Counted from the first letter of the stretch, positions 21,780 through 55,500 are shown. The stretch is DNA of 64,000 bases from an uncultured Alphaproteobacteria bacterium (GCA_949282205.1 CASDOS010000034.1:5972-69971), one strand, 5' to 3'. Made by a program: numbers and translations. The notes: generated by a model not told the origin, from the sequence alone.

Positions 21780-22727
21780 ATGGAGCTGTTACAATATAGT
21801 TTTTCTGATTTATATATAAATTCCAACAAAGATTTTTATATCTCGGATGAAAAATATGCAAATAGTTTAAAAAGAGTCGAACCAAGTGATAAAGAAGAAT
21901 TTTGTGAGCAACTTTTTTTAATAATGCATCAAACCAGCTCTTATTCAATGAATTACAAAGGAACATTTTTCCGCGTAGAAAATGTGCTGAGTGTAAATGG
22001 TGAGCTATATTGTTTAAGGCGAATGCCACTGACGATACCGAGCATACACAATTTAGGGTTTGATCATCGCTTTGTGCAATATATGCTTTCATTGTCAGCA
22101 CAAAGTGGGTTAATAATGTGGGGCGGAGCGACTGGATCAGGAAAGACAACATCAATATCAAGTTTATTAGCCGAATATTTAAATCTGGAAGGAGGATTTG
22201 CATATACGATTGAAGATCCTGCGGAAATGCCATTAGAAGGAGAATATCAATCTTTCAATGGTTCAATAGGTTTCTGCAAACAGACCGAAGTACAAAATGA
22301 TAACTGGAGGGATCCGTTAAAATCAGCACTTCGTTCAAAACCACGATATATATTGATTGGAGAGATTCGAACACCAGATGCCGCATGCGAGTGCTTACGA
22401 GCATCAATATCAGGCCACTTGGTTTTAACCACAATTCACGCCAGTTCAATAACAGATGCACTGAGTTCATTAGTGAAATATGCTAGTTTCAGTATGAGTG
22501 AAAGTTCCGCATTTGATATACTATCCAGAGGAATACTTTCAGTAGTTAAGCAAGATTTAGTCGGTACAGAAATACATAGAAAGCCAAAAATAGAAACATT
22601 ATTTGCTAATCCGGATTTAAATAAAGGTTGCTCAGTACGCTCCATTATTCGTAGCGGAAAACTAAATTTAGCAACATCAATAGAAATGCAAGCAGCAAGA
22701 ATGGCGCAATCACTTTCCATATTTTAA
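21780..22727 (+). CDS. PilT/DotB-like hexameric secretion ATPase
   Basis: 315 aa with Walker A GGATGSGKTT, Asp box TIEDPAE, Walker B YILIGEIR and His box GHLVLTTIHA. It has no N1 extension and no tetracysteine motif, which points to a PilT/DotB-type rather than a PilB/GspE-type enzyme. Confidence 0.85.
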   Translation: MELLQYSFSDLYINSNKDFYISDEKYANSLKRVEPSDKEEFCEQLFLIMHQTSSYSMNYKGTFFRVENVLSVNGELYCLRRMPLTIPSIHNLGFDHRFVQYMLSLSAQSGLIMWGGATGSGKTTSISSLLAEYLNLEGGFAYTIEDPAEMPLEGEYQSFNGSIGFCKQTEVQNDNWRDPLKSALRSKPRYILIGEIRTPDAACECLRASISGHLVLTTIHASSITDALSSLVKYASFSMSESSAFDILSRGILSVVKQDLVGTEIHRKPKIETLFANPDLNKGCSVRSIIRSGKLNLATSIEMQAARMAQSLSIF

Positions 22728-22752: not shown

Positions 22753-23421
22753 CTATTTTAACGACCAAATAAGAATATTATTACGTTGAGAACAAAAATT
22801 TTTGCTGGAGTATTTTTCAACCGGAAGACGATTTTCCCCTCCCCATGTATAAACAAAATCTCCATTAGCATTGTGAATAGTAATTTTATCTAAGACCAAC
22901 AATTGAGATTTAGTAAGTTGAGCTTCTGCATAGGACAAACATTGCGCTTTATTAAGATTAGGCATAACAATATCAAAAGTAACAGAGCGAGGAGAAACAG
23001 GAGCAGCCTCATAACCTTCACCTAAAAGAATATAAATATCATTTTTAAGTAAAATATTTTCATCTTTTACATATTGCAACGGAACAACGTTATCCTTTAA
23101 CAATGTATCAGTAGAAAGTTTCCAATAATCAGGCTTATCAGCATAATAACCCCTGGTATGTTCAGCAATTTGAAAAATAGCATCTATATTATATGAGAGA
23201 GCACGACGAGATGAAGCACAAGAATAAGCAAGAACAGTAATCAACAAAAAGGGAACAGAAAGTTTAATAATCACATTTTTGTTCTGAACAATAAAATCTA
23301 AGCCACAAAGAAAACAGTCACGCAAATCGGAAGAATGTACGTTTAAAAGCATTTCTTTATATGAAGTAAGTAAACTCCGCAATTTAAGATAAAAGGGTGA
23401 AAATTTTTCGAGCATACCCAT
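22753..23421 (-). CDS. hypothetical protein in the pilS (pilin) position of the type IVb pilus cluster
   Basis: 222 aa, translationally coupled to pilR (1-nt overlap). It has one hydrophobic helix (IIKLSVPFLLITVLAYS) after a ~45-aa leader and two C-terminal Cys residues. There is no canonical G/xxxxE prepilin site. Confidence 0.45.
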   Translation of the reverse strand: MGMLEKFSPFYLKLRSLLTSYKEMLLNVHSSDLRDCFLCGLDFIVQNKNVIIKLSVPFLLITVLAYSCASSRRALSYNIDAIFQIAEHTRGYYADKPDYWKLSTDTLLKDNVVPLQYVKDENILLKNDIYILLGEGYEAAPVSPRSVTFDIVMPNLNKAQCLSYAEAQLTKSQLLVLDKITIHNANGDFVYTWGGENRLPVEKYSSKNFCSQRNNILIWSLK

Positions 23422-24542
23422 TACCCCATCGCACTAGTAATCTGATCTTGCATTTCAAATACGCCGAACACAGCCCATGCGATAATACCGGAAATAGCAA
23501 ACATTGCAAACATGTTCAAAATAGAAGCTTTTTGTTCAACAGCTTCAGCAGACTCATCAAGCCAATCGTTAGCAAGCCGGTCGAGAGCTTCTTCAAAGTT
23601 ATCAAGTTCAGCGTAAATACGCAAATCAGCAACAATATCTTTATCAGGAAAATTCAATTTCGTTTTAGAAAGCGCCTCACCCAAGTTATCACCATTTTTA
23701 ATAAAATCCATAGCTCTATCGATACGCTCTTGTAAATATCTATTAGAATCTTTTCTCAAGGAGGTCAAAGCGACGGAAATAGGTACACCACCTTTTATCA
23801 AAGCGGACAAAGAAAGCAACCAAGTAATACCCATAAACATTTTATACAATGACCACGGCGGACAGTCATCAATAGCTTTTCTTGTAGGACCTGTCCAAAT
23901 ACCGATTGTAGCATAAATAAGCAAAAATAATGCTGGAAAAAAAGCAAAAGCAAGCAACCAGTTTTTCTGAATCCACAACGAAACAGCCACTAAGTCTTTT
24001 GCGGTACCAGACCAACGAGCATTAGGTGCAGCGTCCATCATAGGAGGCACCATATATGCACCAATAGCATAAATAACCAAAACAGACATTAAAAGCAAGA
24101 AAGACGGATAAGCAATAGCACCGATAATTGGTTTCAACATTTTATCAGTACCTTCTGCTACACGAATTAAGTTCATTAAAGCACTTTCCAAGTCAGACAT
24201 ATCACCAACAGAAAGCATCAGTCTTTCACGGCTGGGAGCCCAGCCTTTCAATGCATCAGAAAAAGCATAACCATTTTGCAGGGATTTTCCCCAAGAGGCA
24301 ATGGCAATAGCCATAGGCTCGCTCGGGTGTTTACCGTTATCTGTAATACTATCGTACATAATATCTAAAGCGTTCATCAACGAAAAACGGTTTCTTAGCA
24401 ATGAAGCTAATTTTTTATAAACCTTAAGGCGAGCCTTACCAGCCATTCCAATACGAAATTGGGCAAAAGAAACTTCCAATGAGCCTAAAGACTTCATTGC
24501 TTTATTAAAGGCACCGGTATTCGTCTCTTCTTTTTTGGCCAT
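23421..24542 (-). CDS. pilR: type IVb pilus platform protein (GspF/PilC family; R64 PilR-like)
   Basis: Two GspF-type repeats, each followed by TM helices. The start is taken at MAKKEE (24542), preceded by GGAGG. Confidence 0.85.
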   Translation of the reverse strand: MAKKEETNTGAFNKAMKSLGSLEVSFAQFRIGMAGKARLKVYKKLASLLRNRFSLMNALDIMYDSITDNGKHPSEPMAIAIASWGKSLQNGYAFSDALKGWAPSRERLMLSVGDMSDLESALMNLIRVAEGTDKMLKPIIGAIAYPSFLLLMSVLVIYAIGAYMVPPMMDAAPNARWSGTAKDLVAVSLWIQKNWLLAFAFFPALFLLIYATIGIWTGPTRKAIDDCPPWSLYKMFMGITWLLSLSALIKGGVPISVALTSLRKDSNRYLQERIDRAMDFIKNGDNLGEALSKTKLNFPDKDIVADLRIYAELDNFEEALDRLANDWLDESAEAVEQKASILNMFAMFAISGIIAWAVFGVFEMQDQITSAMG

Positions 24543-24557
24543 ACTAACCTCCAAGCA

Positions 24558-26222
24558 CTAGTATACAGGACGTTGGTCAATCAAACCGCACCAACGCTCA
24601 ACTTCGTCCATATCAATTTGCCCTTTAATCATACGCTCAATAGCAGCATCTTTTAACGGACGTCCATTTAATTCACTAACCCAATAGTCAATAGCTTTTG
24701 CTGTTTCGTTATCAATCATTAGACGCAAAAAGCGAGAATCAGGTAAAATAATTTCATCAACAGCCATTCTTCCCTTAAAACCTTTATATCCGCATGCTTT
24801 ACACCCCGGGCCGCTGACATAAACATTTTCAATGCCGTAATCACCCAACGCATTACGCAAACGATCAAATTCAGGGGAACCTTCCTTCGTTTTAATAGAC
24901 TGTCTGCAATTAGGGCATAATTTTCTAAACAGACGTTGAGAAACAAGTCCTTTAACTAATTCAGGGTCATTAAGCAAATAAGGTTGAATACCCATATCCC
25001 GCAAACGAGTAACAATAGCCGGCGCCGAGTTTGCGTGTAAAGTCGTCCAAACACCGTGACCGGACAAAGCACCTTTAAATGTCAATTCAGCAGTAGACAG
25101 CGAACGCGTTTCACCAACAAGAATAACATCAGGGTCAGAACGGAGTGCAGCTGACAATGCTTTAGTAAATTGTTCATTTTTTTCTTCTTCTGTATTAGCG
25201 TTAGTAACAGGCATTTGTCGAGCGCCGGGAATAGGATACTCCGGAGGGTCTTCCACGGTCAATAAGTTAATTTGATAATTTTTTTCTTGCAGTAATTTAA
25301 TCATATTACGTTGTAACGTTGTAGATTTACCCGAACCTGTAGGACCAGCAACAACGTTCAATCCAACGGCCATACTTCTCATTTTATAAAAAAGATCTTC
25401 TTCATATTTACCCAAGCCCAAAGAGCGCAAATCAGAGCTACCTTCTGGATTATCATCAGCATACAAAAGACGCATAACCAGATATTGGGAACCAAATGCG
25501 ATAGGGTTAAACTGAAGACGAATAGCCAAAACATTATGAGGAAGCATCAATTTACCTTTAGAACCACGCAAAGGCGTAGAGCCTAATTTCTGAGCCCCTT
25601 GAAATTCATTCTGAGAATAGTTCGAGTCTGAAATATCAGCGGACGCAAAAACTGAACGAACAAATGCTTCTCCCCATTCTCCGCCATATTCATTTTGTTT
25701 AACCATAATACCATTTTCGCGAAACAGTACGGTAGAAGACGAACCAACAATAATATGGACGTCGGAAACTTTTTTCTGCGAAGCACGTTGAATAATATTA
25801 ATAAAGTCGATTTGCATCTGCATATCTTCAGCTTCTTCGGCAGATACATCAACTGTACCGGCACCACGTTCGGCATAAGCATAAATAGCAGATATTTCAT
25901 TAAGTGTAACATAACGAGGTGCTTTAATAGGAATTTTTCTTCTTTTAACATTTGCCTCAAAGTTATAAACAGCGCCGTCAAATCTATTATCTTTAGAAAC
26001 GAGATACGTTCCATCTGAAAACAGAGCCAACAAGCGTCTTGTTTCATTAGAGATAGCAAAATCCGAGCCATTAACAGTCAACAACTTATTACCATTGGCA
26101 AAAAGCTGATCAAACAAATTGACTTTTTTAGGCTGTTCGCCACCAGCATCTTCATCTTCAAAATTAGAAGACGGATTAGCCTGTCCGTTAACTGTACTAT
26201 CTTTTTTTAACTCTTCAGCCAT
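24558..26222 (-). CDS. pilQ: type IVb pilus assembly ATPase (GspE/PilB family; R64 PilQ-like)
   Basis: Walker A GPTGSGKSTT, Asp box VEDPPEYP, Walker B ILVGETR, His box GHGVWTTLHANSA, and the tetracysteine CPNC...CKAC. Confidence 0.92.
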   Translation of the reverse strand: MAEELKKDSTVNGQANPSSNFEDEDAGGEQPKKVNLFDQLFANGNKLLTVNGSDFAISNETRRLLALFSDGTYLVSKDNRFDGAVYNFEANVKRRKIPIKAPRYVTLNEISAIYAYAERGAGTVDVSAEEAEDMQMQIDFINIIQRASQKKVSDVHIIVGSSSTVLFRENGIMVKQNEYGGEWGEAFVRSVFASADISDSNYSQNEFQGAQKLGSTPLRGSKGKLMLPHNVLAIRLQFNPIAFGSQYLVMRLLYADDNPEGSSDLRSLGLGKYEEDLFYKMRSMAVGLNVVAGPTGSGKSTTLQRNMIKLLQEKNYQINLLTVEDPPEYPIPGARQMPVTNANTEEEKNEQFTKALSAALRSDPDVILVGETRSLSTAELTFKGALSGHGVWTTLHANSAPAIVTRLRDMGIQPYLLNDPELVKGLVSQRLFRKLCPNCRQSIKTKEGSPEFDRLRNALGDYGIENVYVSGPGCKACGYKGFKGRMAVDEIILPDSRFLRLMIDNETAKAIDYWVSELNGRPLKDAAIERMIKGQIDMDEVERWCGLIDQRPVY

Positions 26223-26260
26223 ACTTTACACCCGTAAACAGCAATTAAAATAGAAATGAA

Positions 26261-27781
26261 TTATTTTTTCTTCTTCTCATCAAGAAGTCCAAGAGTAGGA
26301 ACGTAGCCATCAATAGATCTTCCTACATAAAGATAATCGTCACTACCATCCCTACTAAATTTAGCATAATCAGATCCAATTTCACTAAGAATGTGTCCGC
26401 TAGGCAAAGGAGAACCAACTTTCAAAGATAAAGGTTGTCCATTTATATCAATAACATCGACAGACATATTTCCGGCTCTTCCGGTAATACCCAAGATAGC
26501 ATATTGAGCACTCAATTTTTCAGGAACAACTTCTTCTTCAACTTCTTCAGCACTATCAATTTGTGCGGTAGCTATTTCATTCGTAGCGGATACTGCGGCA
26601 GCTGAAGCATTTTTACTCTTCAACTCTTCTATAGATTGAGAAGTCAAATACATATTATTTTTAGCATTTTTTATAATTTGAGCATCTGCCTCAACTCTTT
26701 TACGAAGTTGCTCATTTCTAGCCTTTAAGTTTTTGACAATTCTCTCAAAATTAGCACGAGCAGCTTCAGCCACTTGTATATTTTTAGCAGAGGCATCTAA
26801 GACTTTATTAATACGTTCTTTAAATAACTCAATAAGTTCTTTTTTCTCAATTTCGAGTGCGGAGATTTGCGCATAAAGATTTTCTTTTTCCTTCAACCAC
26901 TCTTGTTGATTAACAAGCATTTGGTTCATATAGGCATTAAGAAGTTTTCTTTGTTTTAGCACTTCAAAAATTTTCTCTTTATCTAGAAGTTCCTGCTTTT
27001 CCTGTAAAACCTGAGCCTCTATTTTCTTTTTACGTTCCAAATCTTGCAATTTCTGTTCTTCTTTCAATCTAGCCTGATCATCAATATTTTTTTGCCGAAT
27101 AGCTTTTTGAGCTTCTATTTCATTACGAATTTTTTCCCGACGCAATTCCAAAGTAAGCAAAGTTGTACTTTTTTCGATTTCAGACATTTGAGAAAACAAA
27201 TCACTATCCATCTGTGATAAAATACTATTTCCGAGAGCCTCGACAGGATTCGCTTTATATTGAATATCTTTAGGCAAATCTGCATCATTAATAGCTGAAG
27301 CAGTCGTAGTTGAAGAAGGCGCGTTAGTATTAGGCTGTTGAGATGCAGAGGAATTTAGATTTTTCATTTTTAAATCAAAATTAAAATCATCACCGGCTGA
27401 AGATTGAGGAAGTGGTGCTTTTTGTGCAGGATTCTGAACTTGTTGAGAATTAGAAGAAGGAAGTCCCACAGAATTATTTCCTTGAGCAACATTTGGAACA
27501 GAGGCATTAGAAAGCACTTGTCCTGTAGCATTCACATTTGCAGAGTTCTGCGCAGGAGCAACAGGAGCTACAGTTGGTGCGACAGCCTTAGCCTGAGATG
27601 GAGAAACTAAAGCATTAGCGTTTTGACTAACATTTGCAGCATTAGCAGGTTGAGAAGCAACATTTAGAGATAAGTTAGCTGCATTTGCTGAAGCATCAGC
27701 CACACTAACAGCATAAGCATTAGCAACATTAACAACAAACGCAGATATAATTAATCCATAAAATTTATTTCTACTGAACAT
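26261..27781 (-). CDS. pilP: PilP-like pilus biogenesis protein with a large coiled-coil insertion
   Basis: Signal peptide (MFSRNKFYGLIISAFVVNVANAYA), an A/N/Q/S-rich low-complexity region, about 250 aa of heptad-like charged sequence, and a C-terminal PilP-like beta domain (YAILGITGRAGNMSVDVIDINGQPLSLKVGSPLPSGHILSEI). It sits between pilO and pilQ. Confidence 0.6.
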   Translation of the reverse strand: MFSRNKFYGLIISAFVVNVANAYAVSVADASANAANLSLNVASQPANAANVSQNANALVSPSQAKAVAPTVAPVAPAQNSANVNATGQVLSNASVPNVAQGNNSVGLPSSNSQQVQNPAQKAPLPQSSAGDDFNFDLKMKNLNSSASQQPNTNAPSSTTTASAINDADLPKDIQYKANPVEALGNSILSQMDSDLFSQMSEIEKSTTLLTLELRREKIRNEIEAQKAIRQKNIDDQARLKEEQKLQDLERKKKIEAQVLQEKQELLDKEKIFEVLKQRKLLNAYMNQMLVNQQEWLKEKENLYAQISALEIEKKELIELFKERINKVLDASAKNIQVAEAARANFERIVKNLKARNEQLRKRVEADAQIIKNAKNNMYLTSQSIEELKSKNASAAAVSATNEIATAQIDSAEEVEEEVVPEKLSAQYAILGITGRAGNMSVDVIDINGQPLSLKVGSPLPSGHILSEIGSDYAKFSRDGSDDYLYVGRSIDGYVPTLGLLDEKKKK

Positions 27782-29048
27782 AAATTGTCCCCTCATAATT
27801 CCATACGCCACCATTATAACGTATATTATTAATCTTAAGTCCTGAAAATTTTGTTAACATTGGTTTCCAAATTTCAGGATCGTATCTTGAATTGATTTTA
27901 AAATTCAACGCCTCATAAACTTTATTTCCCGCTTTGACTTTACCATTAGACAAAGAGATAGACATATTAAGTGTCTGAAATAAATCATTAATCATATTTC
28001 GTAATTCAGACATTGTTTTAGTAGGAATAGAATTAACCTTTTTAACAGACTGAAACGGTATAGAAACAGTAACAGATATTCCCCGGTCATCAACAGTTTT
28101 ATTAGTAAAAGACATCCCCGAATAAGTCAAAGCCATTTCAATCCAAGACAAACGTCCGAACTCTCTTCTCCAAGAAGTAACAACCCCTGATGCAGAACAA
28201 GTTATACCGCCATTTTTCCAGCCAGGAGTAGTGATTGCCGCCAAAGATTGCATTGTCGTCCTACAATTATCAAGTAGCCAATTAGTTTCGACCATAGATT
28301 CCCACGGAGCGGGAACTATTTTTTCAACCTCTTTAACAACTTTCTTTTTAGCTCTACGAGTAACAACTTTATTTTCCTGCGTTTTAGTAGCAAAAAAAGT
28401 ATTAGCTATAAACATAACCATCCAAGCGCCGGCAGCAATAGAGAGAACCACAACGATAGCTAACTCAGCCCCACGAAGAGCATTAATTTTCTCTAATTGA
28501 ACATCAAGTCCCTGAGCAAAGATTTCCGAAATATCTTTTTGTTCAGTATCGTCAATCCCCCATTCTTGCGGAGCAATTTTTCTAGACCAATCCGGAACAG
28601 ACAGCATAGACATAAATTGTTCTCTAGCATCTTCTTCTCTAACAAAGAGAACATCACCATCAGATAAAATAACATCATTTCTGACACAAAGATACCAATA
28701 ACCCGCATCAACTTTAAAAACAGCCAACAACGAAGACGCATCACTCATTGCCGTTACAGCAGTAACCGCAGCGACATTCATACCTTTTTTAAAGCCCTGA
28801 GAAGAAACAGCCAGACCAAGCTGAGGAGATTTACCATGTTTTACACAAAATAAATCAGCTCCGACCAGAACGTTTTCAGCAGCTTCTTTCGCATCTAAAA
28901 ATGGGGCATCGACATTCTGCAAACTTTCCCAAAAGATACTTGCAGCATATTGCACCCCATCAACAGTAAAGCTAGAGGCCCATTCTTTACTGTTTTCGCG
29001 GGAAGGCTCATCTAAAACCTCTAAATCTTTGTCATCTTCTTCAGCCAC
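27771..29048 (-). CDS. pilO: PilO-like pilin accessory protein (R64/PAPI-1 PilO2 type)
   Basis: 425 aa, the R64 PilO size class. It has an N-terminal cytoplasmic domain, a single central TM (LAIVVVLSIAAGAWMVMFIANTFF) and a C-terminal periplasmic domain. It sits between the secretin and pilP. Confidence 0.6.
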   Translation of the reverse strand: MAEEDDKDLEVLDEPSRENSKEWASSFTVDGVQYAASIFWESLQNVDAPFLDAKEAAENVLVGADLFCVKHGKSPQLGLAVSSQGFKKGMNVAAVTAVTAMSDASSLLAVFKVDAGYWYLCVRNDVILSDGDVLFVREEDAREQFMSMLSVPDWSRKIAPQEWGIDDTEQKDISEIFAQGLDVQLEKINALRGAELAIVVVLSIAAGAWMVMFIANTFFATKTQENKVVTRRAKKKVVKEVEKIVPAPWESMVETNWLLDNCRTTMQSLAAITTPGWKNGGITCSASGVVTSWRREFGRLSWIEMALTYSGMSFTNKTVDDRGISVTVSIPFQSVKKVNSIPTKTMSELRNMINDLFQTLNMSISLSNGKVKAGNKVYEALNFKINSRYDPEIWKPMLTKFSGLKINNIRYNGGVWNYEGTIYVQ

Positions 29049-29057
29049 TGTCTACTC

Positions 29058-30662
29058 CTAAAACTTCATACGAGATTCCGGCATCAAAGGTGATTCTAAC
29101 ACAACAGGAGTTAATAAAATAACAACAATACTACGCGTTTTTTCAACTTTTTGATGCCCACCGAGAACATTATTATTAACAGCCCCTAACCCAGCCTTAT
29201 CACTTGATGTTTCGACACGTTCATAACCGGAAAGAACCAAAGTTTCGCCAGATTTTAAAGCAACTTCTTGTGAAAAACCTCTCTCTTCAATAATTGGATT
29301 TTGAATATAACCGGATTCTTCAGAACTATCCAAGTTAACATTTTCCAAATCCAATAAATCAGATAAGTTAAGACTGAAGAGCATCATTAGACGACCATGA
29401 TCCATAATTCTCGGCAAGACATCCAAAGTAAAGCCTGTTTCAATTTCTTCAGTTTCAACGGTAACATCATAACTGGCTTCCCCACCGACTGTTCCGTTAT
29501 TTGTTTTAGTATATTCAGAAATATAGTTTTGCGTTTTAACAACTTGGATAGGAGCAGGTTTATTATTCATTGTTGTAACAGTACCACTGGTAACCAAAGT
29601 TGTAACCCCCTGTGTGGAAAGCGCCTGAATAGCAGCATTAACGGTGACATCGCCACTTAAAATTTTCATAGACATACCGCTATTACCATCAACTAACCCT
29701 GTTGGGCCAAAGTTATTATTACCTAATGTAATATTTCCGCCGGAAGCTGTTCTATCTTTAAATGCTGCATTCAAATCAAAGCCAAAACCACGAGATTCAT
29801 CAACTTCAACCTGAAGAACTTTAACACTAATAGCCACTTGTCTAGACAATCTGATATTTTGCTCATTAACAAATTTTGAAACTTTTTTAATTTCTGTTGG
29901 AGTAGCCGTAATAGTTAAGGTTCCATTCATAGGATCAGTAACCAAGCTAGAACCAGTACCTAACATTGACTTAACGGCCGTAACGATATTAGCCCATAAA
30001 TCAATACTAGATATACCACTTGTAATACTTCCGCCACCGGAAGAACTACTGACGCTGGAAGTCATAGACGGTTTAGTCGGCAGGGTATACAAAGTAAATG
30101 TTTTTGTTGTATACTTATATATATAAATTTCTCCATTTTCATATTTCCACCATACGCCGAAATGAGAGCATACTTCATCTAACAAGCCGCTTAGAGAGCC
30201 TTTATACGAAACGAGCATACGAGAAGTATCCGACCATTTTGAACCGACTTTAGAAATAGTCGGGACATTTTTATCGGCAGCAGCCTTAGCAGCAGCCTCT
30301 AACTGGGGAGCAAAACGGACTTTAATTGATGTAATCTGACCAACCATATTACCAATTTCGTAAAGAGTAATCGGTCTATTACTAACTAAAATAACCCCGT
30401 CGGAAGTTTCAAGATAGTGAGGCAAAGGTTTATCACCTTCATATTCTATTTCACTTGTATCGCCAAGCCAGATATCATCTTTAATTCTTATAACATCTGT
30501 ATCAGCAACAGTCTGAGGCGCTTTAGCATCTTCTTTATGTTTAATTGTAGCGTCGACATCTCTCTCCAAAGCAGCATCATAGTCTGTTGGTAATGAACAA
30601 GAAGCAACACCCAAAAGTAAAACAGCAGCAAATCCGAGTAAATATTTTTTATTAGTATGCAT
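29058..30662 (-). CDS. pilN: type IVb pilus secretin lipoprotein (R64 PilN family)
   Basis: Lipobox LLGVASC. The C-terminal secretin domain reads TLVTSGTVTTMNNKPAPIQV...ETGFTLDVLPRI...ALKSGETLVLSGY...VVILLTPVVL. Confidence 0.9.
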   Translation of the reverse strand: MHTNKKYLLGFAAVLLLGVASCSLPTDYDAALERDVDATIKHKEDAKAPQTVADTDVIRIKDDIWLGDTSEIEYEGDKPLPHYLETSDGVILVSNRPITLYEIGNMVGQITSIKVRFAPQLEAAAKAAADKNVPTISKVGSKWSDTSRMLVSYKGSLSGLLDEVCSHFGVWWKYENGEIYIYKYTTKTFTLYTLPTKPSMTSSVSSSSGGGSITSGISSIDLWANIVTAVKSMLGTGSSLVTDPMNGTLTITATPTEIKKVSKFVNEQNIRLSRQVAISVKVLQVEVDESRGFGFDLNAAFKDRTASGGNITLGNNNFGPTGLVDGNSGMSMKILSGDVTVNAAIQALSTQGVTTLVTSGTVTTMNNKPAPIQVVKTQNYISEYTKTNNGTVGGEASYDVTVETEEIETGFTLDVLPRIMDHGRLMMLFSLNLSDLLDLENVNLDSSEESGYIQNPIIEERGFSQEVALKSGETLVLSGYERVETSSDKAGLGAVNNNVLGGHQKVEKTRSIVVILLTPVVLESPLMPESRMKF

Positions 30663-31716
30663 TCTCATTCTCCATTGTTTCAACAACTATAACACGATTC
30701 CCTTTGTAATATGTAGCAATAGGTGCAGGTCTTGCTCTTGCAAAAGCTCTAATTAAGGCTGAGCTTACATCAGCAAATTTACCTTTAAACATAACCCCCG
30801 CATTTAAGATATAATTTCTATTAGTATTCCACAAGAGTTTCCACCCGGACATTGCACTCCATTTCGTTAACAATTCGCGCAGATTTTCGCCTTCTTCGGC
30901 TTCCCAAGTTAGTATTGTATCGTCCCCAACTTGTATTTCGTTAATATCAACATCTGTAACTAATTGTTTATCTTTTCCAACTTCGGTAAACTCAATATTT
31001 TCATCATCAACATAATCAGCAATATCAAAAGATTCCTCAGTAAATTCGGATGTAATAACATCATCATCAATTATTTCATCACAATTTTCTTCACATACAA
31101 TTTCGTAAGAGGAACCATCTTCAGTAACACTTTTTTTAATTTGTCTTATTTCTTTAATTTCAGGTAACTTAACATTATCGGCGTGTCCGATTTTATTCTG
31201 TTGTTGCTTAGGAGAGGCTATAGGCGATACTAAAGGTTTCTGCTCATCCAAACTATAATTATTAGGTGCTTTATAAGCATCTTGAGGTGTTTCTATTTCC
31301 AACTTAGCAGTTTCGCTAAATACCCCATCATCAACAATATATTTAGGGTTTCTGTTTTTTCTGACAGTATCACTAACAGTTACAGTCTGAGTGACAATAT
31401 CATTTTCTATATCAGGTTGAATGGTGGCTGTAAGGTTATTACCGGCTGCTGACTGCGTATATAAATGATCTCTTTTGGTTCTTTCACCATAAGCTCTATA
31501 ATCCGCTTCAGTTTTAGTATAATTCACCAAAGCCGTATCATTGCAACTAATACCGTTAACGCCGCAACGGCTATTCGGATTAACCGTGGCATCAATAACA
31601 GGGGTATCCTTTTCGGGAGTAAAGGTGCTAGTTTGATTTTTATCAGAAAAACCGCTACATGCAGAAACACTGCATACACATAATACACAAAACGGTAATA
31701 AAAAACTTTTTTTCAT
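30652..31716 (-). CDS. pilL: PilL/TcpQ-family pilus lipoprotein
   Basis: Lipobox SVSAC after MKKSFLLPF. The C-terminal TcpQ/PilL domain reads WEAEEGENLRELLTKWSAMSGWKLLWNTNRNYILNAGVMFKGKFADVSSALIRAF...ATYYKGNRVIVV. Confidence 0.85.
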   Translation of the reverse strand: MKKSFLLPFCVLCVCSVSACSGFSDKNQTSTFTPEKDTPVIDATVNPNSRCGVNGISCNDTALVNYTKTEADYRAYGERTKRDHLYTQSAAGNNLTATIQPDIENDIVTQTVTVSDTVRKNRNPKYIVDDGVFSETAKLEIETPQDAYKAPNNYSLDEQKPLVSPIASPKQQQNKIGHADNVKLPEIKEIRQIKKSVTEDGSSYEIVCEENCDEIIDDDVITSEFTEESFDIADYVDDENIEFTEVGKDKQLVTDVDINEIQVGDDTILTWEAEEGENLRELLTKWSAMSGWKLLWNTNRNYILNAGVMFKGKFADVSSALIRAFARARPAPIATYYKGNRVIVVETMENENAY

Positions 31717-31823
31717 ATTTTGACCCATTTTTAAATCCAACCTAACTCTACAATAAATATTAAAAAATAATTAATCAAGCATAACACTTTATTTATAAAA
31801 CGTTTTGTTGATTAAATTTTTAG

Positions 31824-33281
31824 CTACTCCTGTATTTTTATTGTCCTAATAATAAAGGTATTTGGTTCTGTTAAAGAGAATACCGTATCAACCTTTTTGA
31901 AATCAACGCCGTTATTTGCAAAAATAGTATAAAGAAGATTTAAGCGTTTTCTTTGCAACTCAATGGAGGCTGTTGCATCCAAACGAATTTGAAGATAATA
32001 GCGTTTTTCTTTTGCTTTTTCGGAAAAGGCTTTAAGCCAGCGAAGTGTTTGTCCGGATATCTCGGCTCTGTCGGGCTGAAATGAAAGTTTGAGCTCTGAC
32101 GGAATTATTTTATTTTGAGCTTGTTCTTTCTGAGTTTCTTGAATTGTTTCATAAAAACTGACAAGAGCGTCATTTGACGACAAAGTAGCGGTGTTTGATT
32201 GTTCTCCTTGACTACTGTATGAAGGCTTGATCTTACTCTTTGGCTGTGCTGGTGTTGAAACTTCTTTTTTACTATCGGAAGGTGAAAACCAAGAGGAAAT
32301 GTTACTAAGGATACTCTTACTCTCTTTTGGAGTTGTAGACGTAGGTTTGGTATCTGGTATTTTCTTTGAAATGATTTTTAAAGATGAATTATCTTCTTGA
32401 GGAACGGCTAGGGGTTCTGGTGAAGACTTTTTCTTGCTTGTTTGAGATTTTTCTTTCTTTATTGTAGTGGTTTGAGGCTTGTTGGCAATAAAGGTTGGCG
32501 TTAAATTCTCATCATTTAATATTTCATCTGGGATAGGGAAAATGATGCTTTGTTTAATCCGCTCAGCTACTTTGTAAGATAAATCTTCCGTGTTGTTGGC
32601 TAATTGCTCTGGAGTGTCGTCAAAAAGAGAGTTTGTGTTATCGGAAGCGTACTGCTCCAATAACTTTTTGTTTTTTATGTGCTTACTTCCCTGAGCAACA
32701 ACCCAAGGTGAATCAAACGAATTGTCAATATTATCTACAGAGGTATCCGTTGGTAAAAGCGCAATTTGATTGTCTGTGTCACCGCTATAAGAAACTTCGG
32801 CATCATAAGAATAATTTTGCTGTTTTTCAAAATCTATAGGGATTGAGTTGTCAATATTAACACTAAGAATTTCATCATCTTCAGGACCGTCAATTTCTTG
32901 CGGAGAATAGATAATATCTGAATTCTCAGAGCTAATCTCGTTTTTTGTAGAAGGTAATTCGGCTAATTTTATTTCAGAGGATTGTGATGAAGATGACATG
33001 TTATCTTGCGATGGATGAATATCAAGCAAAGAATTTTTCTGAATTTCTGCAAAAGAAATATTTTTGAAAGCTGTATTATCGCTTTTAAAAAGTTCTATTT
33101 GAATACTGGAATGACTTGGGTAAACATGTGATATATGTGCAGAAGAGGCTAACAAATGACTGGTTAATGATACACCAACCAGAGATAATCCAAAGCCAAA
33201 AATAAAATTTTTAAATTCCCACATAAAGCACTTTCCGGACATAAATACTAAAATCAAAAGTATTAACCATATTTTAAACAT
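31824..33281 (-). CDS. membrane-anchored Ser/Thr/Pro-rich hypothetical protein, first gene of the minus-strand pilus operon
   Basis: 485 aa with N-terminal hydrophobic segment(s), a long low-complexity S/T/P/K region, and a structured C-terminal ~110 aa (LSFQPDRAEISGQTLRWLKAFSEKAKEKRYYLQIRLDATAS...). Confidence 0.6.
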   Translation of the reverse strand: MFKIWLILLILVFMSGKCFMWEFKNFIFGFGLSLVGVSLTSHLLASSAHISHVYPSHSSIQIELFKSDNTAFKNISFAEIQKNSLLDIHPSQDNMSSSSQSSEIKLAELPSTKNEISSENSDIIYSPQEIDGPEDDEILSVNIDNSIPIDFEKQQNYSYDAEVSYSGDTDNQIALLPTDTSVDNIDNSFDSPWVVAQGSKHIKNKKLLEQYASDNTNSLFDDTPEQLANNTEDLSYKVAERIKQSIIFPIPDEILNDENLTPTFIANKPQTTTIKKEKSQTSKKKSSPEPLAVPQEDNSSLKIISKKIPDTKPTSTTPKESKSILSNISSWFSPSDSKKEVSTPAQPKSKIKPSYSSQGEQSNTATLSSNDALVSFYETIQETQKEQAQNKIIPSELKLSFQPDRAEISGQTLRWLKAFSEKAKEKRYYLQIRLDATASIELQRKRLNLLYTIFANNGVDFKKVDTVFSLTEPNTFIIRTIKIQE

Positions 33282-33373
33282 TAAATAAAAACATTAGCAA
33301 GTATATTTGCAAACTAATAACAACAAAATCACTTCCGTTTTATAAGAAAAAATGAAAAATAAGAGGATGAGTA

Positions 33374-33392
33374 GTGTGAAGTTTTTGTTACA
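33374..33392 (+). promoter_or_regulatory. conserved 19-mer GTGTGAAGTTTTTGTTACA, copy 1, 138 nt upstream of the virB2-1 ATG
   Basis: Exact repeat of 34048-34066. It is followed by ~50 nt of partly conserved leader that includes a G6AG4 tract at 33429-33439. Confidence 0.5.
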
Positions 33393-33511
33393 AGGGTAAA
33401 AAATGAATTAAATCAATATGATATTCAAGGGGGGAGGGGCGTCAAAAGACTTGAAATTTTTTTAAATTTGCTGTAAAGTAAATAATGTATAATGAATTTA
33501 GGAGAACTGAT

Positions 33512-34047: not shown

Positions 34048-34066
34048 GTGTGAAGTTTTTGTTACA
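34048..34066 (+). promoter_or_regulatory. conserved 19-mer GTGTGAAGTTTTTGTTACA, copy 2, 132 nt upstream of the virB2-2 ATG
   Basis: Exact repeat of 33374-33392. TATAAT lies immediately 5' of it (34042-34047), and an extended -10 TGATATAAT lies at 34145-34153. Confidence 0.5.
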
Positions 34067-34179
34067 GGTAAATAAAATGCATAAAAACAATGGGATAACG
34101 TAAGGGGTGAAGCGTATTTTTTTCTAGCTATTTGTTTGAATTTGTGATATAATAAAAACAATTATAGGGGAGATTGAAA

Positions 34180-50532: not shown

Positions 50533-52518
50533 ATGATGAAAGTAGCAAAGATTTTATCTATAGTAATAATATCAATAGGAATAATAGTTCCCACCGTATA
50601 CGCGCAGGTAACAAAAGATAATTTGGATCAAAATGCTGACCAGAGCCAAGGGAATTACGCGGCAACCAATTTAAATTATTTAGGCGGAGGCGGATCATTA
50701 GGTATGATGCAGAGTGCATGGAAAGATCCGTTGCAACACATGGGAGAAGGACAAACGCGTCCAGGCTATACAAAGTACTATTGGACACCTGAATTAGTTT
50801 TACCTGTAAGAGTAAGAGAAGGTATGTACACATTAATAAATTTTCCGAATTGGGAAGTTATAGAGAATGTGTATATCGGCGATGGACAATCATTCAATGC
50901 GGAAATACAAGGTCCGTCAAGTTTAATGGTATATCCGGATTCTTCACAATTTGTTGGAGTAGATACCAATATGATTGTTTTTGGTCGGTCTGGGAATAAA
51001 TACGTTTTTTATGTACAAAGTGAAACTGTCAATACCGATAGGATAACCAATGCGATAATAGATATAGAGGTTGTTAAAAGACGTCAAAATGCAACAGGTT
51101 CTGCCGTAATAGGAAGTAACAATGGTGGAGGACATATAAATGCGAACGCGTATGGGCAAAATGGTAGCAGCGCGGATGCAACTTTTACAAGGGATTTGCA
51201 AAAAGAGGACTGGATTGAAAAAATTCCGGTAGATCCAACAAAGTTTCGATTTGATATAGAAGTATATGTTCCTAATCCAGATGATATAGTAATAGCACCG
51301 GAGCGTGTATGGCGCGACAATATTTTCACTTATATAGATTTAGGGGACAAGGCCTTAACAGCAAATCAAAGACCGATAGTAACACTAATTGTAGAGAGGT
51401 CGGAAACCCCGGTAGGTTTTAGAACGGCGGGACCGAATAATCGCCTGATAATAGTGGAAGGTATGGGCGATATGGTTCTTCGCAGTGGTAAGAGAATAGT
51501 CTGCTTAAAATTAAGACGTTCAGATTCGGATGGCTTAGAAAATACAGTTTATGCTAAAACGAATGAATGGGATTTGCAGGCTAAGAATTATCAAAGAGCA
51601 ACAGAAGGAAAAGAAAGTAATACAGAATCATATGAGAATGTATACACAGGTGATGTTCAAAAAGAAAATAATCAAAAGAAATCATTCTTTGGAATCAGCT
51701 CGTTCTTTGGTGGCTCACAAAATACGGATAGTTCAACAACAGATACCAATGGCCTAAGCTACGAAGATATGATAAGCGGTAAAAAGAAAGCGTCCGGTCA
51801 ACAATCCGAGAAAGCCTCAAATGTGGAAAACACAACACCGCAAGATAAGATTAAGCCGCAAACAAATATAGAAAGCAAAACCGAAGAAACAGCTTTGTTA
51901 AATTCAATACCTAAGGCAAAAACATATGTTGCATCTCCAACTCCGCAAGAAAGTGGAATAGAATTAACAGGGCAGTATGATACAAAAGCAGATGGAGCCG
52001 AATTAGTGACGCCACAATATGAGAATAAGGCGGATATATCAGTAAGTTACCAGAAAGATGTTCAGCAAAATACAACAATTCCGGAAAGTGTTAAGCAAAA
52101 TGCTTCAACTCAAGTCGGCGTCTCAAGCAACAATTCAAGTCCTGTCCTGATTACGCCTAAAGATGAAAGTCTAGAAAAACAAAATTCATTAGTTAATGCT
52201 GAAACAGAGGCATTACTCAAAGAGTTTAGAGATGGAAGAGCCTTTTCCAATGCTGATGAGAGCAACATTTCCATAGAATTGGGAACGGATAAAGATGTAA
52301 ACAATTTGGAAAAATTATGGAATGACATATCCAAAAATTACTCAGCGACGTTAGGTAAATATCAGCCATTTTATTCAGTAGACACACCAGCAGACGGACA
52401 GGGAAAAGAAGTGTTTCATCTTCGTGTAGGTCCTGTAAAATCATTAGATGAAGGCGATAATATATGCAGCCAATTAGGTCGTAACGGAATATTTTGCAGT
52501 GTGGTCAGAATACAATGA
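50533..52518 (+). CDS. virB9: VirB9/TrbG-family outer-membrane core protein fused to a C-terminal SPOR domain
   Basis: Signal peptide ...VYAQV. The VirB9-like core runs from about 50700 to 51540 (YTKYYWTPELVLPVRVREGMYTLINFP...MIVFGRSGNKYVFYV...RIVCLKLRR). A ~240-aa Q/S/T/N/E-rich linker follows, and the last ~85 aa are SPOR-like (FHLRVGPVKSLDEGDNICSQLGRNGIFCSVVR). Confidence 0.8.
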   Translation: MMKVAKILSIVIISIGIIVPTVYAQVTKDNLDQNADQSQGNYAATNLNYLGGGGSLGMMQSAWKDPLQHMGEGQTRPGYTKYYWTPELVLPVRVREGMYTLINFPNWEVIENVYIGDGQSFNAEIQGPSSLMVYPDSSQFVGVDTNMIVFGRSGNKYVFYVQSETVNTDRITNAIIDIEVVKRRQNATGSAVIGSNNGGGHINANAYGQNGSSADATFTRDLQKEDWIEKIPVDPTKFRFDIEVYVPNPDDIVIAPERVWRDNIFTYIDLGDKALTANQRPIVTLIVERSETPVGFRTAGPNNRLIIVEGMGDMVLRSGKRIVCLKLRRSDSDGLENTVYAKTNEWDLQAKNYQRATEGKESNTESYENVYTGDVQKENNQKKSFFGISSFFGGSQNTDSSTTDTNGLSYEDMISGKKKASGQQSEKASNVENTTPQDKIKPQTNIESKTEETALLNSIPKAKTYVASPTPQESGIELTGQYDTKADGAELVTPQYENKADISVSYQKDVQQNTTIPESVKQNASTQVGVSSNNSSPVLITPKDESLEKQNSLVNAETEALLKEFRDGRAFSNADESNISIELGTDKDVNNLEKLWNDISKNYSATLGKYQPFYSVDTPADGQGKEVFHLRVGPVKSLDEGDNICSQLGRNGIFCSVVRIQ

Positions 52519-55500
52519 ACGAGAATACGCGATTTGAAGAATATGAAAGAAAGACACGAAAGATAATTTTCACCATAGGAATTATCGCATTCTGTTTTTT
52601 CTTGTTTGGATTATTGATATTATCATCAGATACAGAAGTCTATAATCCGGAAGAAGCAACTCCGGACTTTGTCGAGAACCAAAATATATTGCCAGAAATA
52701 ACAGCGGATACCGGACCGATATTTATTGATACGGAAGCAACAACAGGGGATACAAAAAATAAGCCGATAAAAGTCACGCCAGCACAAATTAACATGAACA
52801 AATTTATTCTAGGAGTTGATGTTCAAAATCAAAGCGTTTTAACAATAGGAACGGATGGCAGTGAGAGCATACATATAGAAAGAGTAGAGTTAGTAGAAGA
52901 AACCGAAGATGGATTTGAATTTAGAGATAAATGCAGAAACCGAGATTTACGAGGAGATGAAACATGCAATATTTTAATAAGTTGGGCACCCCATTTACCG
53001 GGTAATGTTCAAAACAATTTTAAGATAATATGGTATGAAACACGTTTAGATAAATCGAGTGCCAAATCAGAAGAAGTAAGTATTAAGGGCAGTGCGGTGT
53101 ATCCTGAAGATAATCAACAGAATTGTGCTGCGGGAGGAGGGTGCACAATAAGTGAAGATGGAGGCATAGGTGCGCACCGCTTAGCAATAGGTCCAAACGG
53201 GGAGATAATAGGTTATATAGATGAAGCCGGAAATGTCCATGACAAAGATGGTAATATAATCGGTCGTGTAAATGAAGATGGGTTAATAATCGATTCAGAC
53301 GGAAACATAATAGGTGTTGCTCAGAATATGAAATTAGCCTATGACAAAGATGGGAATATTATAGGTTATGTCAAGACAGATGGAACAGTAGTCGATTTAC
53401 AAGGGGAGGTAATAGGGAAAGCTCTTCCGGATGGAACAATAGTCAACAGTAAAGGCGAGATAATAGGGAAAGCGGTTGAAGCAGGTTTTGTATATGATAA
53501 AAACGGAAAAATAATAGGCCGCGTTTTACCAGATGGAACAGTTGTCGATATAAATGATCCCAAAAAGATTATAGGGCGTTTGAATGAAAATGGAGAAGTC
53601 GTTGATGAAAATGGCAATATTATAGGGAAAGTAACATCTGCCGGCAATATTGTTGTAGATGAGAATGGAAATGTTCTAGGCGTTGTAATGCCGGATAACA
53701 GTGTTGTAGACCAAGATGGAAATATTGTAGGTTATGTGGATGAAAATGGCAATGTTTACAAATTAGCAAAAGAAAAGATAGGAACAAATGGAGATAGTAG
53801 AAAAATTGTTTATGATAAGAATGGTAAAGCAATAGGCTACATAGATGAAAATGGCAAAGTAGTTAAGTTTGCACAAGACAAAGATAAACCGGAAATAATA
53901 GGAAAGGTAGGCGTAAGTCGCAGATTAGCATACGATAAAGACGGTAATGTTATCGGTTATGTAGATAAAGATGGAACTGTAAAAGATTTTAAGGGAAATA
54001 TAATCGGGAAGATAGATAAGGACGGTAATATAGTAGATAAGAATGGTAATATTATAGGTAAAGCAGGAGCTTATGCGAAATTAGCGCTAGATAAAGACGG
54101 TAAAGTAATAGGGTATGTGGACGAACAAGGAAGAGTGTTTGACCATAATGGCAAACATATCGGAAATGTAGATAAAAATGGTAATATCATCGGAATAAAA
54201 AAAGCCGAAACCAATGGAGATAAAAAAAGAATAGCTTTAGGTTTGGATGGTAAGCCGATAGGGTATATTGACGATGATGGTAATGTAATAGACTTTGAGG
54301 GTAATATTATCGGCAAGGTAAATGAAAAAGGAGAAATAATCGGCAAGAATGGGAAAAAAATTGGTACTGCCGGCGGATATGGTACGGTAGCCTATGATAA
54401 GAATGGAAAGATTATAGGTTTTGTGGACGATAAAGGGCGAGTAATCGGGAAGGATGGAAAACTCCTGGGATATGTAGATGAAAAAGGACAAATTATAGGT
54501 ACGACGGGAAAAATAATAGGGCGAGCCGGAACAACAAGAGAAGTAGCCTATGATAAAAATGGGAAATTCATAGGTTACGTCGACACGGATGGAACCGTAA
54601 AAGGATGCGGCGGAGTAGTTATCGGTAAGAAAGACGCCTCAGGAAATGTAATTGATAAAGAAGGAAAAGTGATAGGAAAGGTTAAAGGTGTAAAAGAGTT
54701 AGCCTTTAATTCACAAGGAGTATTTATCGGATATATTGATGAAAAAAAGCGGGTAATAGACTGCGATGGAAAGATAATAGGTGTTGTTGATAAAAAAGGA
54801 AACATCATCGCATCAAGTGGAGAAAAACTGGGAACAGCCGGTAATTATAAAAGATTAGCATATGACAAAAACGGGAAAGTAATCGGATATGTAACACCCG
54901 ATGGGACGGTAAAAGATTTCAAAGGTAACTTAATAGGTCGAATGACTGAAGACGGAACAATTCTTGATAAAAAAGGAAGAGTTATCGGAAAAGCCGGAGA
55001 ATATAGGCAAGTGGCCACAGACAAAGACGGCAATATAATAGGCTATGTAGATGAAAATGGCCGCGTGGTAGATGAAAACGGAAAACTAATAGGTTTCATA
55101 GATAAAGACGGTAATGTGATTAAAGCCGGTACAACCGTAATCGGTAAAACATGTATTAGAAAAAAGGTTGTAAAAAACAAGACCGGAAACATCATCGGTT
55201 ATTTAGATAAAAACAATATTGTAAAAAATTTCAGTAATAAGGTTATTGGGACGAATAAAAATGGAGATATCGTTGATAACAAAGAATTATTGATAGGAAC
55301 GGTCGGGGAAATAATGAATATAGCACAAAAAGGCAATGGTGAAATTGTTGGCTATTTAGATGCTAGAAACTACGTTCGAGGAGATGAAAATAAAGTTATA
55401 GGTATTGTTGATATAAAGGGAAATGTCCTTGGAGCAAAAGAAAATATAGTAGGGATCCTTGATGCAGATAAAAAAACGGTTAAGGATAAAGGGAATAATG

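Follow-up and report, generated by a model that had tools for sequence, protein, structure and literature searches.

A chromosomal type IVb pilus operon of the R64 thin-pilus variant beside a VirB-type type IV secretion system in an uncultured alphaproteobacterium

The stretch of DNA considered here (the window, 64,000 nucleotides from an uncultured alphaproteobacterium; GCA_949282205.1, CASDOS010000034.1:5972-69971) carries on its minus strand an operon for a type IVb pilus, which an original prediction, made without database searches, had described as a pilL-N-O-P-Q-R cluster closed by a gene in the pilin slot and akin to that of the IncI plasmid R64. Listing and translation of open reading frames (ORFs) found all seven of those genes in place (window 22753-31740) and as tightly packed as claimed, all of them overlapping or lying no more than 38 nt apart; from pilL to the pilin-slot gene, the spacing is -35, +9, -44 (-11 if counted from Met12 of PilP), +38, +3 and -1 nt. 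The seven do not make up the whole operon, as an eighth co-directional gene (31824-33281) lies 83 nt upstream of them. Profile, pairwise and fold comparisons bore out the R64-type identity and confirm the operon, as far as sequence comparison goes, as the core of a type IVb pilus machine of the R64 thin-pilus variant. All the genomes compared are metagenome-assembled genomes (MAGs).

Genes of the operon and class of the machine

Two plasmid operons were used as yardsticks, i.e. that of an IncI plasmid (L037) and that of a Thalassospira xiamenensis plasmid (L036), the best plasmid match; PilL, PilN, PilO, PilQ and PilR align pairwise with their counterparts in both at 19-33% identity. Identification as the R64 variant rests on the combination of a secretin of the PilN family, of BfpB as the solved relative of this secretin, of a PilO that belongs to PF06864 and of a PilL with a TcpQ domain.

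The secretin (29058..30686, minus strand), a lipoprotein with the lipobox VASC, matches TIGR02520 of NCBIfam ('PilN family type IVB pilus formation outer membrane protein', E 2.8e-77, 260 bits), which is ahead of the next family by more than 40 orders of magnitude, the runners-up being MshL (1.7e-34), GspD (5e-13) and PilQ (1.3e-12). It is 30% identical to IncI PilN and 29% identical to the Thalassospira PilN (over 88%), and its only sequence relative with a solved structure is the type IVb secretin BfpB (PDB 9u5s, E 1e-47). The pilL gene (30652..31740, minus strand) lies directly upstream and overlaps pilN by 35 nt; its likely start is the Met at 31716 (MKKSF...), which gives the lipoprotein a lipobox, VSAC. 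The C-terminal domain of PilL belongs to PF10671 (TcpQ; E 6.6e-17 in Pfam), and over the C-terminal ~110 aa the protein is 27-33% identical to IncI PilL and to the TcpQ protein of Thalassospira.

The inner-membrane protein PilO (27771..29048, minus strand) matches PF06864 (PAP_PilO) at E 4.7e-14 and 52.5 bits, the cut-off being 26.7, and consists of a cytoplasmic N-terminal domain, a single transmembrane (TM) segment at ~aa 195-220 and a periplasmic C-terminal domain. Membership of PF06864, the PilO2 family, is what defines the R64 thin-pilus variant, in which PilO2 is bitopic with a cytoplasmic, actin-like N-terminal domain (PMC3984277). Close homologs of the window protein are indeed named 'type 4b pilus protein PilO2' by the NCBI pipeline; searched against the PDB as a single sequence, it gave only spurious matches to TAL-effector repeats, with no qualifying stretch.

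The remaining core proteins are less specific or more divergent. PilQ (24558..26222, minus strand), a GspE/PilB-class assembly ATPase, matches PF00437 (T2SSE, E 5.8e-62) and TIGR02533 (6e-65), carries the tetracysteine motif CPNC...CKAC and the Walker A motif GPTGSGKST, and is 29% identical to IncI PilQ; PilR (23421..24554, minus strand), a GspF-type inner-membrane platform, matches PF00482 (T2SSF, E 9e-27) and is 24-26% identical to IncI PilR and its Thalassospira counterpart. Both belong to families that occur in type IV filament systems generally and do not distinguish the variant. By tblastn with the window proteins, they are the sole PilB-class ATPase and the sole platform gene of the genome, and no second assembly ATPase, platform or secretin was found with PilQ, PilR and PilN as queries, beyond small PilT-like ATPases.

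The gene between those of PilO and the ATPase (26261..27814, minus strand) encodes an elongated protein of 517 aa, about three times longer than R64 PilP, with a signal peptide, a low-complexity region, a coiled coil of ~250 aa and a C-terminal PilP-like beta domain of ~90 aa. The label 'PilP-like' given to it originally holds for this end, whereas the rest of the 517 aa does not resemble PilP. The assignment was made from gene position and from the alignment of a 24-ortholog profile of the C-terminal ~90 aa to IncI PilP (hhalign probability 54%, E 1.3e-4), which is weak but in register; neither the whole protein nor the C-terminal piece, as single sequences, matched any Pfam or NCBIfam family, and the family profile gave only coiled-coil noise against the PDB.

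The profile searches that the original prediction had proposed as a check have thus been run, and the matches obtained (TcpQ, TIGR02520 for PilN, PF06864, T2SSE and T2SSF) fit the R64 type. Reassignment to a type II secretion system, a Tad system or a type IVa pilus, named beforehand as the outcome that would speak against this identity, did not occur, as no family specific to any of the three was reported by Pfam or NCBIfam for any operon protein.

Pilin-slot protein, prepilins and accessory proteins

The last gene of the operon (22753..23421, minus strand; 222 aa) overlaps pilR by 1 nt and is translationally coupled to it. Its product is pilin-like by profiles and fold, in line with the slot in which it had been noticed, but it has no prepilin signal. 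The match to Bundlin (PF05307) is borderline (22.4 bits for a cut-off of 22.3), while the family profile matches BfpA (1zwt, E 2.9e-11) and TcpA, and hhalign relates the family to IncI PilS with a probability of 83%. The AlphaFold2 model (predicted local distance difference test, pLDDT, 94.8) consists of one continuous 45-residue helix and a beta-sheet head, and its top six Foldseek matches are all type IVb pilins (the CFA/III filament 9iuf, Salmonella Typhi PilS 3fhu and 1q5f, CofA and TcpA). In an alignment with the orthologs of 22 loci and with canonical prepilins, the N-terminus shows a basic stretch followed by an ordinary TM helix and has neither a conserved Gly(-1) nor Glu5; the globular part conserves the motifs IR..Y..KPDYWGLS, VMPG..SFDI and WGG..LP and a Cys pair. 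By its profile, model and Foldseek matches on the one hand and its N-terminus on the other, the 222-aa protein is a type IVb pilin in fold that is devoid of the signal needed for cleavage and polymerisation. PilM was considered as another identity for it and rejected (hhalign probability of the family against IncI PilM, 0.2%).

The same slot is filled differently elsewhere. In family f2 of the order (L056), it holds a canonical prepilin, MKKFTYKNDQAG/RSMIEMLGVLAIVGVLSVGG (the slash standing at the cleavage site, here and below), with PF08805 at 1.6e-15, and in family f40 of the class (L074) the gene behind pilR is likewise a canonical prepilin gene, so that the uncleavable paralog appears, from these comparisons, to be specific to family f1. 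In at least 10 of 19 other f1 loci, canonical prepilin genes (1-4, in tandem) follow the pilin-slot gene, and in most of these a PilT-like gene sits further downstream; in the genus of the window, such prepilin genes are dispersed. The longest ORF of the pilin-slot gene often starts inside pilR (L039, L040, L041, L044, L047, L052, L053 and L022), and the seemingly conserved peptide ..CKTKLPALWE.KM of the extended ORF is the conserved 3' end of pilR in another frame; because of this reading in another frame, automatic gene calls may over-extend the gene.

Canonical prepilins with a class III signal peptide and the PF08805 domain are present in the genome, outside the operon. A motif scan and tblastn found at least seven such genes of the PilS family, unlinked to it and of the type G/RSMIEM..., i.e. 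contig C54:16187-16840 (PF08805 9.3e-14, Bundlin, G/RSMIEM), C9:34435-35067 (PF08805 3e-6, Bundlin, G/RSMIEM), C54:50376-51011, C51:10662-11303, C53:21028-21702, C43:2150-2791 and C53:35644-36288 (G/YTMIE), besides a probable fragment of a pilin-related gene on C52. IncI PilS and the Thalassospira pilin both match C54:16187-16840, which makes this gene the best candidate for the major pilin. Two further genes lie on C14. One (C14:38731-42975, L058:2731-6975) encodes a protein of 1414 aa that has a class III signal peptide and prepilin N-terminus, MSKLFNKSEQRG/TLLVEAL..., and that matches nothing in Pfam or NCBIfam; this giant modular pilin may act as adhesin in place of PilV. The other (C14:46070-46687) is a second non-canonical pilin-like gene with no prepilin motif. 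Most genomes of the order have 1-10 prepilin copies, and the usual number per genus is 1-4; in three genera with genomes of 1.3-1.5 Mb (G006, G036, G049, G008 and G050-G054), 24 to at least 49 full-length copies are found, a possible repertoire for surface variation.

The original prediction had noted that no prepilin peptidase, PilM, PilV or shufflon is in the window, and this is so. The search of the genome that it had suggested yielded the peptidase but, with IncI PilV as tblastn query, no PilV homolog. The peptidase (Peptidase_A24, E 3.2e-16; GGGD motif) is encoded at C58:17381-18082 beside a LuxR-type regulator and weakly matches IncI PilU. It is single-copy and unlinked in all 61 genomes of the order that were surveyed, each of which also has prepilins, and, since tblastn finds no second set of PilQ, PilR and PilN, peptidase and prepilins have, by this test, no other client in the genome. 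Unlinked peptidases have precedents in PAPI-1 and in Tfp7 of Burkholderia pseudomallei (PMC3984277). Shufflon-like repeats were not found. PilM, the PilT transglycosylase and PilV with its shufflon are accessory and not core components, and some accepted members of the variant already do without the shufflon, PilI/J/K and PilU (PMC3984277).

The first gene of the operon (31824..33281, minus strand) encodes a leader protein of 485 aa composed of an N-terminal membrane anchor, a long disordered linker rich in Ser, Thr and Pro, and a C-terminal domain (~aa 390-485) modelled by AlphaFold2 with a pLDDT of ~90 as an OmpA-like beta-alpha-beta-alpha-beta-beta fold. The protein, its C-terminal piece and its family profile gave no match in the searches of Pfam, NCBIfam and PDB sequences, and the OmpA/MotB-like nature of the domain comes from the fold search, in which the top Foldseek matches are Pal, MotB, OprF and SiiA (E 7e-5 to 1e-3). 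Across orthologs, Arg446 is invariant and Asp435 nearly so, and the gene is syntenic in 23/23 loci. From the modelled fold, the leader protein is likely to be a peptidoglycan tether.

Converging on the operon from the other side, behind the atp F0 operon, is a gene (21780..22727, plus strand) for a small hexameric ATPase of 315 aa of PilT/DotB/TraJ-like type (T2SSE 2.7e-29), with intact Walker A, Asp box, Walker B and His box and with SVRSIIRSGK as an AIRNLIRE-like stretch. With the small ATPase encoded next to the type IVb pilus genes of the Thalassospira plasmid it shares 33% identity, and its gene is near the pil cluster in most genera; we infer from these sequence features that it is a candidate retraction motor. 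A paralog (C50:2991-4130, L064), 48% identical, stands alone beside a gene for a 1035-aa low-complexity protein.

Conservation in the order and the neighbouring secretion system

Comparative genomics, also among the checks proposed at the outset, found the cluster conserved across the order and not strain-specific: PilO, always free of internal stops, was detected in 196 of the 201 species sampled and in every one of the 22 genera. The gene order leader-pilL-N-O-P-Q-R is identical in 23/23 loci, which represent 20+ genera and two families, the pilin-slot gene is detectable in 22 of them, and PilP is long (460-570 aa) in all. Across genera, identity with the window proteins decreases from PilQ (~69%) and PilR (~64%) through PilN (~54%) and PilO (~46%) to PilP (~31%) and the pilin-slot protein (~30%). 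The G+C content of the locus is that of its flanks, which consist of housekeeping genes (the atp F0 operon, dsbA, xerD and addAB). No tRNA gene is found in the window, and no integrase except a XerC/D-type gene syntenic with housekeeping genes. The order-wide synteny, the flank-like G+C, the housekeeping flanks and the absence of MOBP/Q and MOBF relaxases from the genome argue that the pil machine is chromosomally fixed and vertically inherited, and not the mating pilus of a mobile element. Genomes of the order measure 1.2-2 Mb, and the close relatives are gut and rumen MAGs.

The remainder of the window is occupied by a type IV secretion system (T4SS) with three VirB2, VirB4, two VirB8, VirB9, a giant split VirB10 and VirB11. 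The virB2/virB4 genes adjoin the leader gene in divergent orientation in 19/23 loci. The intergenic region between the pil operon and virB2 (33282..33484) presumably holds the promoters of both; a sigma-70-like site on its minus strand (33445-33418) is a consensus match only, such sites being no more numerous than in shuffled sequence, and the same applies to the counts of the promoter and terminator scans in general. A 50-nt direct repeat (33374-33423 and 34048-34097; 80% identical, with the first 19 nt identical) has its copies upstream of the first and second virB2, inside or just beyond the divergent region, and is possibly a shared regulatory site. At 52494-63138, VirB10 (TrbI) has large beta-flower repeat proteins (PF21785/PF21784) fused to it or encoded beside it, and VirB9 carries a SPOR domain. 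Unlinked to the window are a gene for a VirD4-like coupling protein (C50:59626-61218, PF02534 E 1.8e-38) and one for ComEC (C59:90449-91300, PF03772 E 1.3e-65).

Outside the order, PF06864 is found in 33 of 254 genera of the class, an undercount, as the Pfam model misses true orthologs (it is negative for G002 and G003, which were PilO-positive in the order-wide survey). Neighbourhoods were checked at sixteen sampled loci outside the order. The full layout, with virB4 and virB2 divergent from a homolog of the leader gene and the pil operon, recurs in family f20 (L078, G218), whose genomes are small (1.1-2.0 Mb); partial layouts are found in family f108, with virB2 only (L073) or the leader homolog only (L075), and in family f40, with the leader homolog only (L074), L073 and L075 belonging to genomes G466 and G306 and L074 to G238. 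PilQ of these four loci is 53-58% identical to that of the window. Other loci of the class look mobile-type, with an extra TraJ/DotB-like ATPase and a transglycosylase. On this comparison, the pil-virB pairing seems older than the order.

Proposed function, rival explanations and known systems

We give a probability of about 60% to the reading that these genes encode an R64-variant machine with dispersed prepilins, which acts as an adhesive, retractile pilus in cooperation with the adjacent T4SS. That probability applies to the whole; the identity part is held with much higher confidence, and the coupling of the pilus to the T4SS stands at roughly even odds. The adhesive and retractile role and the cooperation are what we infer, the latter from the divergent pil-virB arrangement kept across genera and families. 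According to the proposed mechanism, the C58 peptidase would cleave the dispersed prepilins, which PilQ and PilR would then polymerise through the PilN channel, with PilO2 and the coiled-coil PilP-like protein as a putative inner-membrane alignment set and PilL as the partner lipoprotein of PilN. The OmpA-like leader protein may fasten the machine to the peptidoglycan layer, the fibre would be retracted by the PilT-like ATPase, and the uncleavable pilin paralog would be retained in the inner membrane as a component of the machine and not as a fibre subunit; the pilus would then probably bring the adjacent T4SS into contact with a target cell.

Several observations weigh against this reading. 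The PilN score is below the equivalog cut-off of TIGR02520 (287.65), which shows, by this measure, a family-level member and not an equivalog, and the PilP assignment depends on the hhalign probability of 54%. A tblastn search of the genome gave no homolog of IncI PilM, of the PilT lytic transglycosylase, of PilV or of PilI. The best NCBIfam score of the PilT-like ATPase (pilT_fam, 106 bits) is far below the cut-off of 319, and the protein also resembles DotB and TraJ; since two PilT-like ATPase genes are kept in genomes that lack the pil operon, it may have no part in this pilus. Adjacency to a T4SS is no proof of cooperation; the T4SS neighbour is absent in 4/23 loci, and one genome (G182) keeps VirB4 with no pil genes. 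G182 is among the four genomes with neither PilO nor PilN, all of which have both PilT-like genes; the other three also lack VirB4 and PilQ, which speaks for a link of pilus and T4SS, but, as the pil and T4SS loci are adjacent, these joint absences may be binning gaps. Finally, the absence of relaxases refers to PF03432 and PF08751 (MOBP/Q and MOBF), neither of which is found in the genome, and other relaxase classes were not searched.

A bolder version, possible but in our judgement improbable, is that the pilus and a remodelled VirB-type T4SS form one co-inherited organelle for contact and delivery in a whole clade of gut Alphaproteobacteria with small genomes, in which the pilus would catch a target cell, retract and dock the T4SS on it, the uncleavable pilin would be a machine part of a new kind, retained in the inner membrane at the base of the fibre as primer, anchor or gatekeeper, and the identity of the fibre would be varied through dispersed prepilin families of up to ~50 copies.

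The rival that survives best, although we consider it doubtful, assumes no part for the T4SS, the pilus serving colonisation or aggregation on host mucus, epithelium or sister cells, as with the toxin-coregulated pilus (TCP), the bundle-forming pilus (BFP), colonization factor antigen III (CFA/III) and S. Typhi PilS, and the adjacency being historical. The globular domain of the pilins, which is of the bundlin/PilS/TcpA/CofA type, would suit such a pilus, as would the faster divergence of the pilin-slot protein (24-46% identity, against 60-96% for PilQ and PilR) and the multiplication of prepilins in three genera, both being typical of exposed, host-facing proteins; the loci with no T4SS neighbour and the VirB4 of G182 are also in its favour. 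However, the divergent pil-virB arrangement spans two families of the order and is repeated completely in one further family of the class at least; neutral adjacency does not usually last so long where flanks are otherwise rearranged.

A competence pilus, i.e. a retractile filament that draws in DNA for import by ComEC, is unlikely. The genome does encode ComEC and PilT-like ATPases, and the pil machine is its only type IV filament system by tblastn with the window components; yet ComEC was also found in 11/14 control genomes, many of them from organisms that are not naturally competent, and we know of no R64-variant pilus that takes up DNA. The mating-pair stabilisation known from R64 and from PAPI-1/ICEclc, which the original prediction had cited, is very unlikely to apply to this locus as the role of a pilus of an integrated conjugative element: the cluster agrees with those of R64 and PAPI-1 in gene order and families, a T4SS is adjacent, a VirD4-like coupling protein is encoded in the genome and 2443 of the 2830 plasmid records with a PilN match are conjugative, but the genes occupy the same chromosomal place in 196/201 species and 22 genera, the sole integrase-family gene is XerC/D-like, and the lack of a tRNA gene in the window, the unremarkable G+C, the lack of the two relaxase families searched and that of PilV and a shufflon all point away from an element of this kind. 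A device exporting a soluble protein (as TCP exports TcpF and CFA/III exports CofJ) or a decaying relic, as might be suspected from the non-canonical protein in the pilin slot and the R64 components not found, is highly improbable, as nearly all species keep the eight genes whole and free of internal stops, canonical prepilins and peptidase are universally kept, and the operon has no conserved candidate gene for a secreted partner.

The kind of system is already known: NCBI names PilO2 homologs, and conserved chromosomal R64-variant operons have been described in Burkholderia (PMC3984277). In the literature searched, no description was found of order-wide fixation, of a long-standing association with a VirB-type T4SS where the two common relaxase families are missing, or of a pilin-fold protein without a prepilin signal, an OmpA-like leader, an elongated PilP and dispersed, multiplied prepilins. 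Thin pili of the R64 type have mostly been encountered as accessories to conjugative plasmids and islands, whereas here the machine is fixed in the chromosomes of an entire order of uncultured gut bacteria, which suggests that the pairing of pilus and T4SS turned from DNA transfer into a tool for cell contact, or began as one. A concrete hypothesis is thereby obtained on how these gut bacteria meet hosts or neighbours; furthermore, the f1-conserved pilin fold without prepilin signal provides a natural test of a pilin that would be neither cleavable nor polymerisable, and the dispersed, multiplied prepilin genes point to surface variation.

Among known systems, the BFP of enteropathogenic Escherichia coli, which has a PilT-like retraction ATPase, BfpF, resembles the machine of the window in that the secretin is similar to BfpB and the pilin-domain profile matches BfpA; BFP differs in gene order and accessory set, is carried on a plasmid and occurs in a single pathotype only. 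BfpC has the fold of PilO2 (PMC3984277).

The 192-kb plasmid of T. xiamenensis M-5 (NZ_CP004389.1), the best plasmid match for PilN, has the same order of genes, i.e. those for a TcpQ protein, PilN, PilO2, a coiled-coil protein of 232 aa whose end is PilP-like, ATPase, platform and pilin, and its small ATPase has 345 aa. Its 'type 4 pilus major pilin' (L036:18773-19348) reads ...RRAG/WGIGSFLL..., with an R64-like Gly-Trp site and Ser, not Glu, at +5. Unlike the window operon, the Thalassospira cluster is plasmid-borne, lies beside a DotD/TraH-type (I-type) T4SS, includes its own peptidase and has no OmpA-like leader.

The chromosomal precedents are PAPI-1 of Pseudomonas aeruginosa (pilL2-pilM2) and Tfp7 of B. 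pseudomallei, R64-variant operons without a peptidase of their own, of which the former relies on the unlinked PilD and the latter is conserved in all Burkholderia strains (PMC3984277). The topology of PilO2 in the window and the position of its TM segment are those of PilO2Bp, which has a cytoplasmic domain, a TM segment near residue 195 and a periplasmic domain (PMC3984277). In contrast to the window operon, PAPI-1 is a mobile island with a conjugative role, and both PAPI-1 and Tfp7 keep PilM2, PilV2 and PilT2; the uncleavable pilin paralog, OmpA-like leader, long coiled-coil PilP and dispersed multi-copy pilin genes are not described for either.

A close parallel is with the thin pilus of R64/IncI (pilI-pilV) and of its IncI2 relative TP114, with which the operon shares the order PilL, N, O, P, Q, R with a pilin gene behind it; as in R64/IncI, PilL and PilN are lipoproteins and PilO belongs to PF06864, with pairwise identities to the IncI proteins of 22-30%, and the pilins of the genome belong to PF08805, as does TP114 PilS (PMC9045228). 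Unlike that of R64, the present operon is chromosomal and order-wide and not plasmid-borne, and it does without PilI/J/K, PilM, the PilT lytic transglycosylase, PilV and a shufflon, its peptidase being unlinked; it has instead the threefold longer PilP, the OmpA-like leader gene, the uncleavable pilin paralog and PilT-like ATPases. Next to the present operon stands a VirB-type T4SS (T4ASS), next to that of R64 an I-type (Dot/Icm-like) one; although the context here is non-mobile and without the two common relaxase families, the probable role of the pilus in bringing the T4SS to a target cell parallels the logic of R64.

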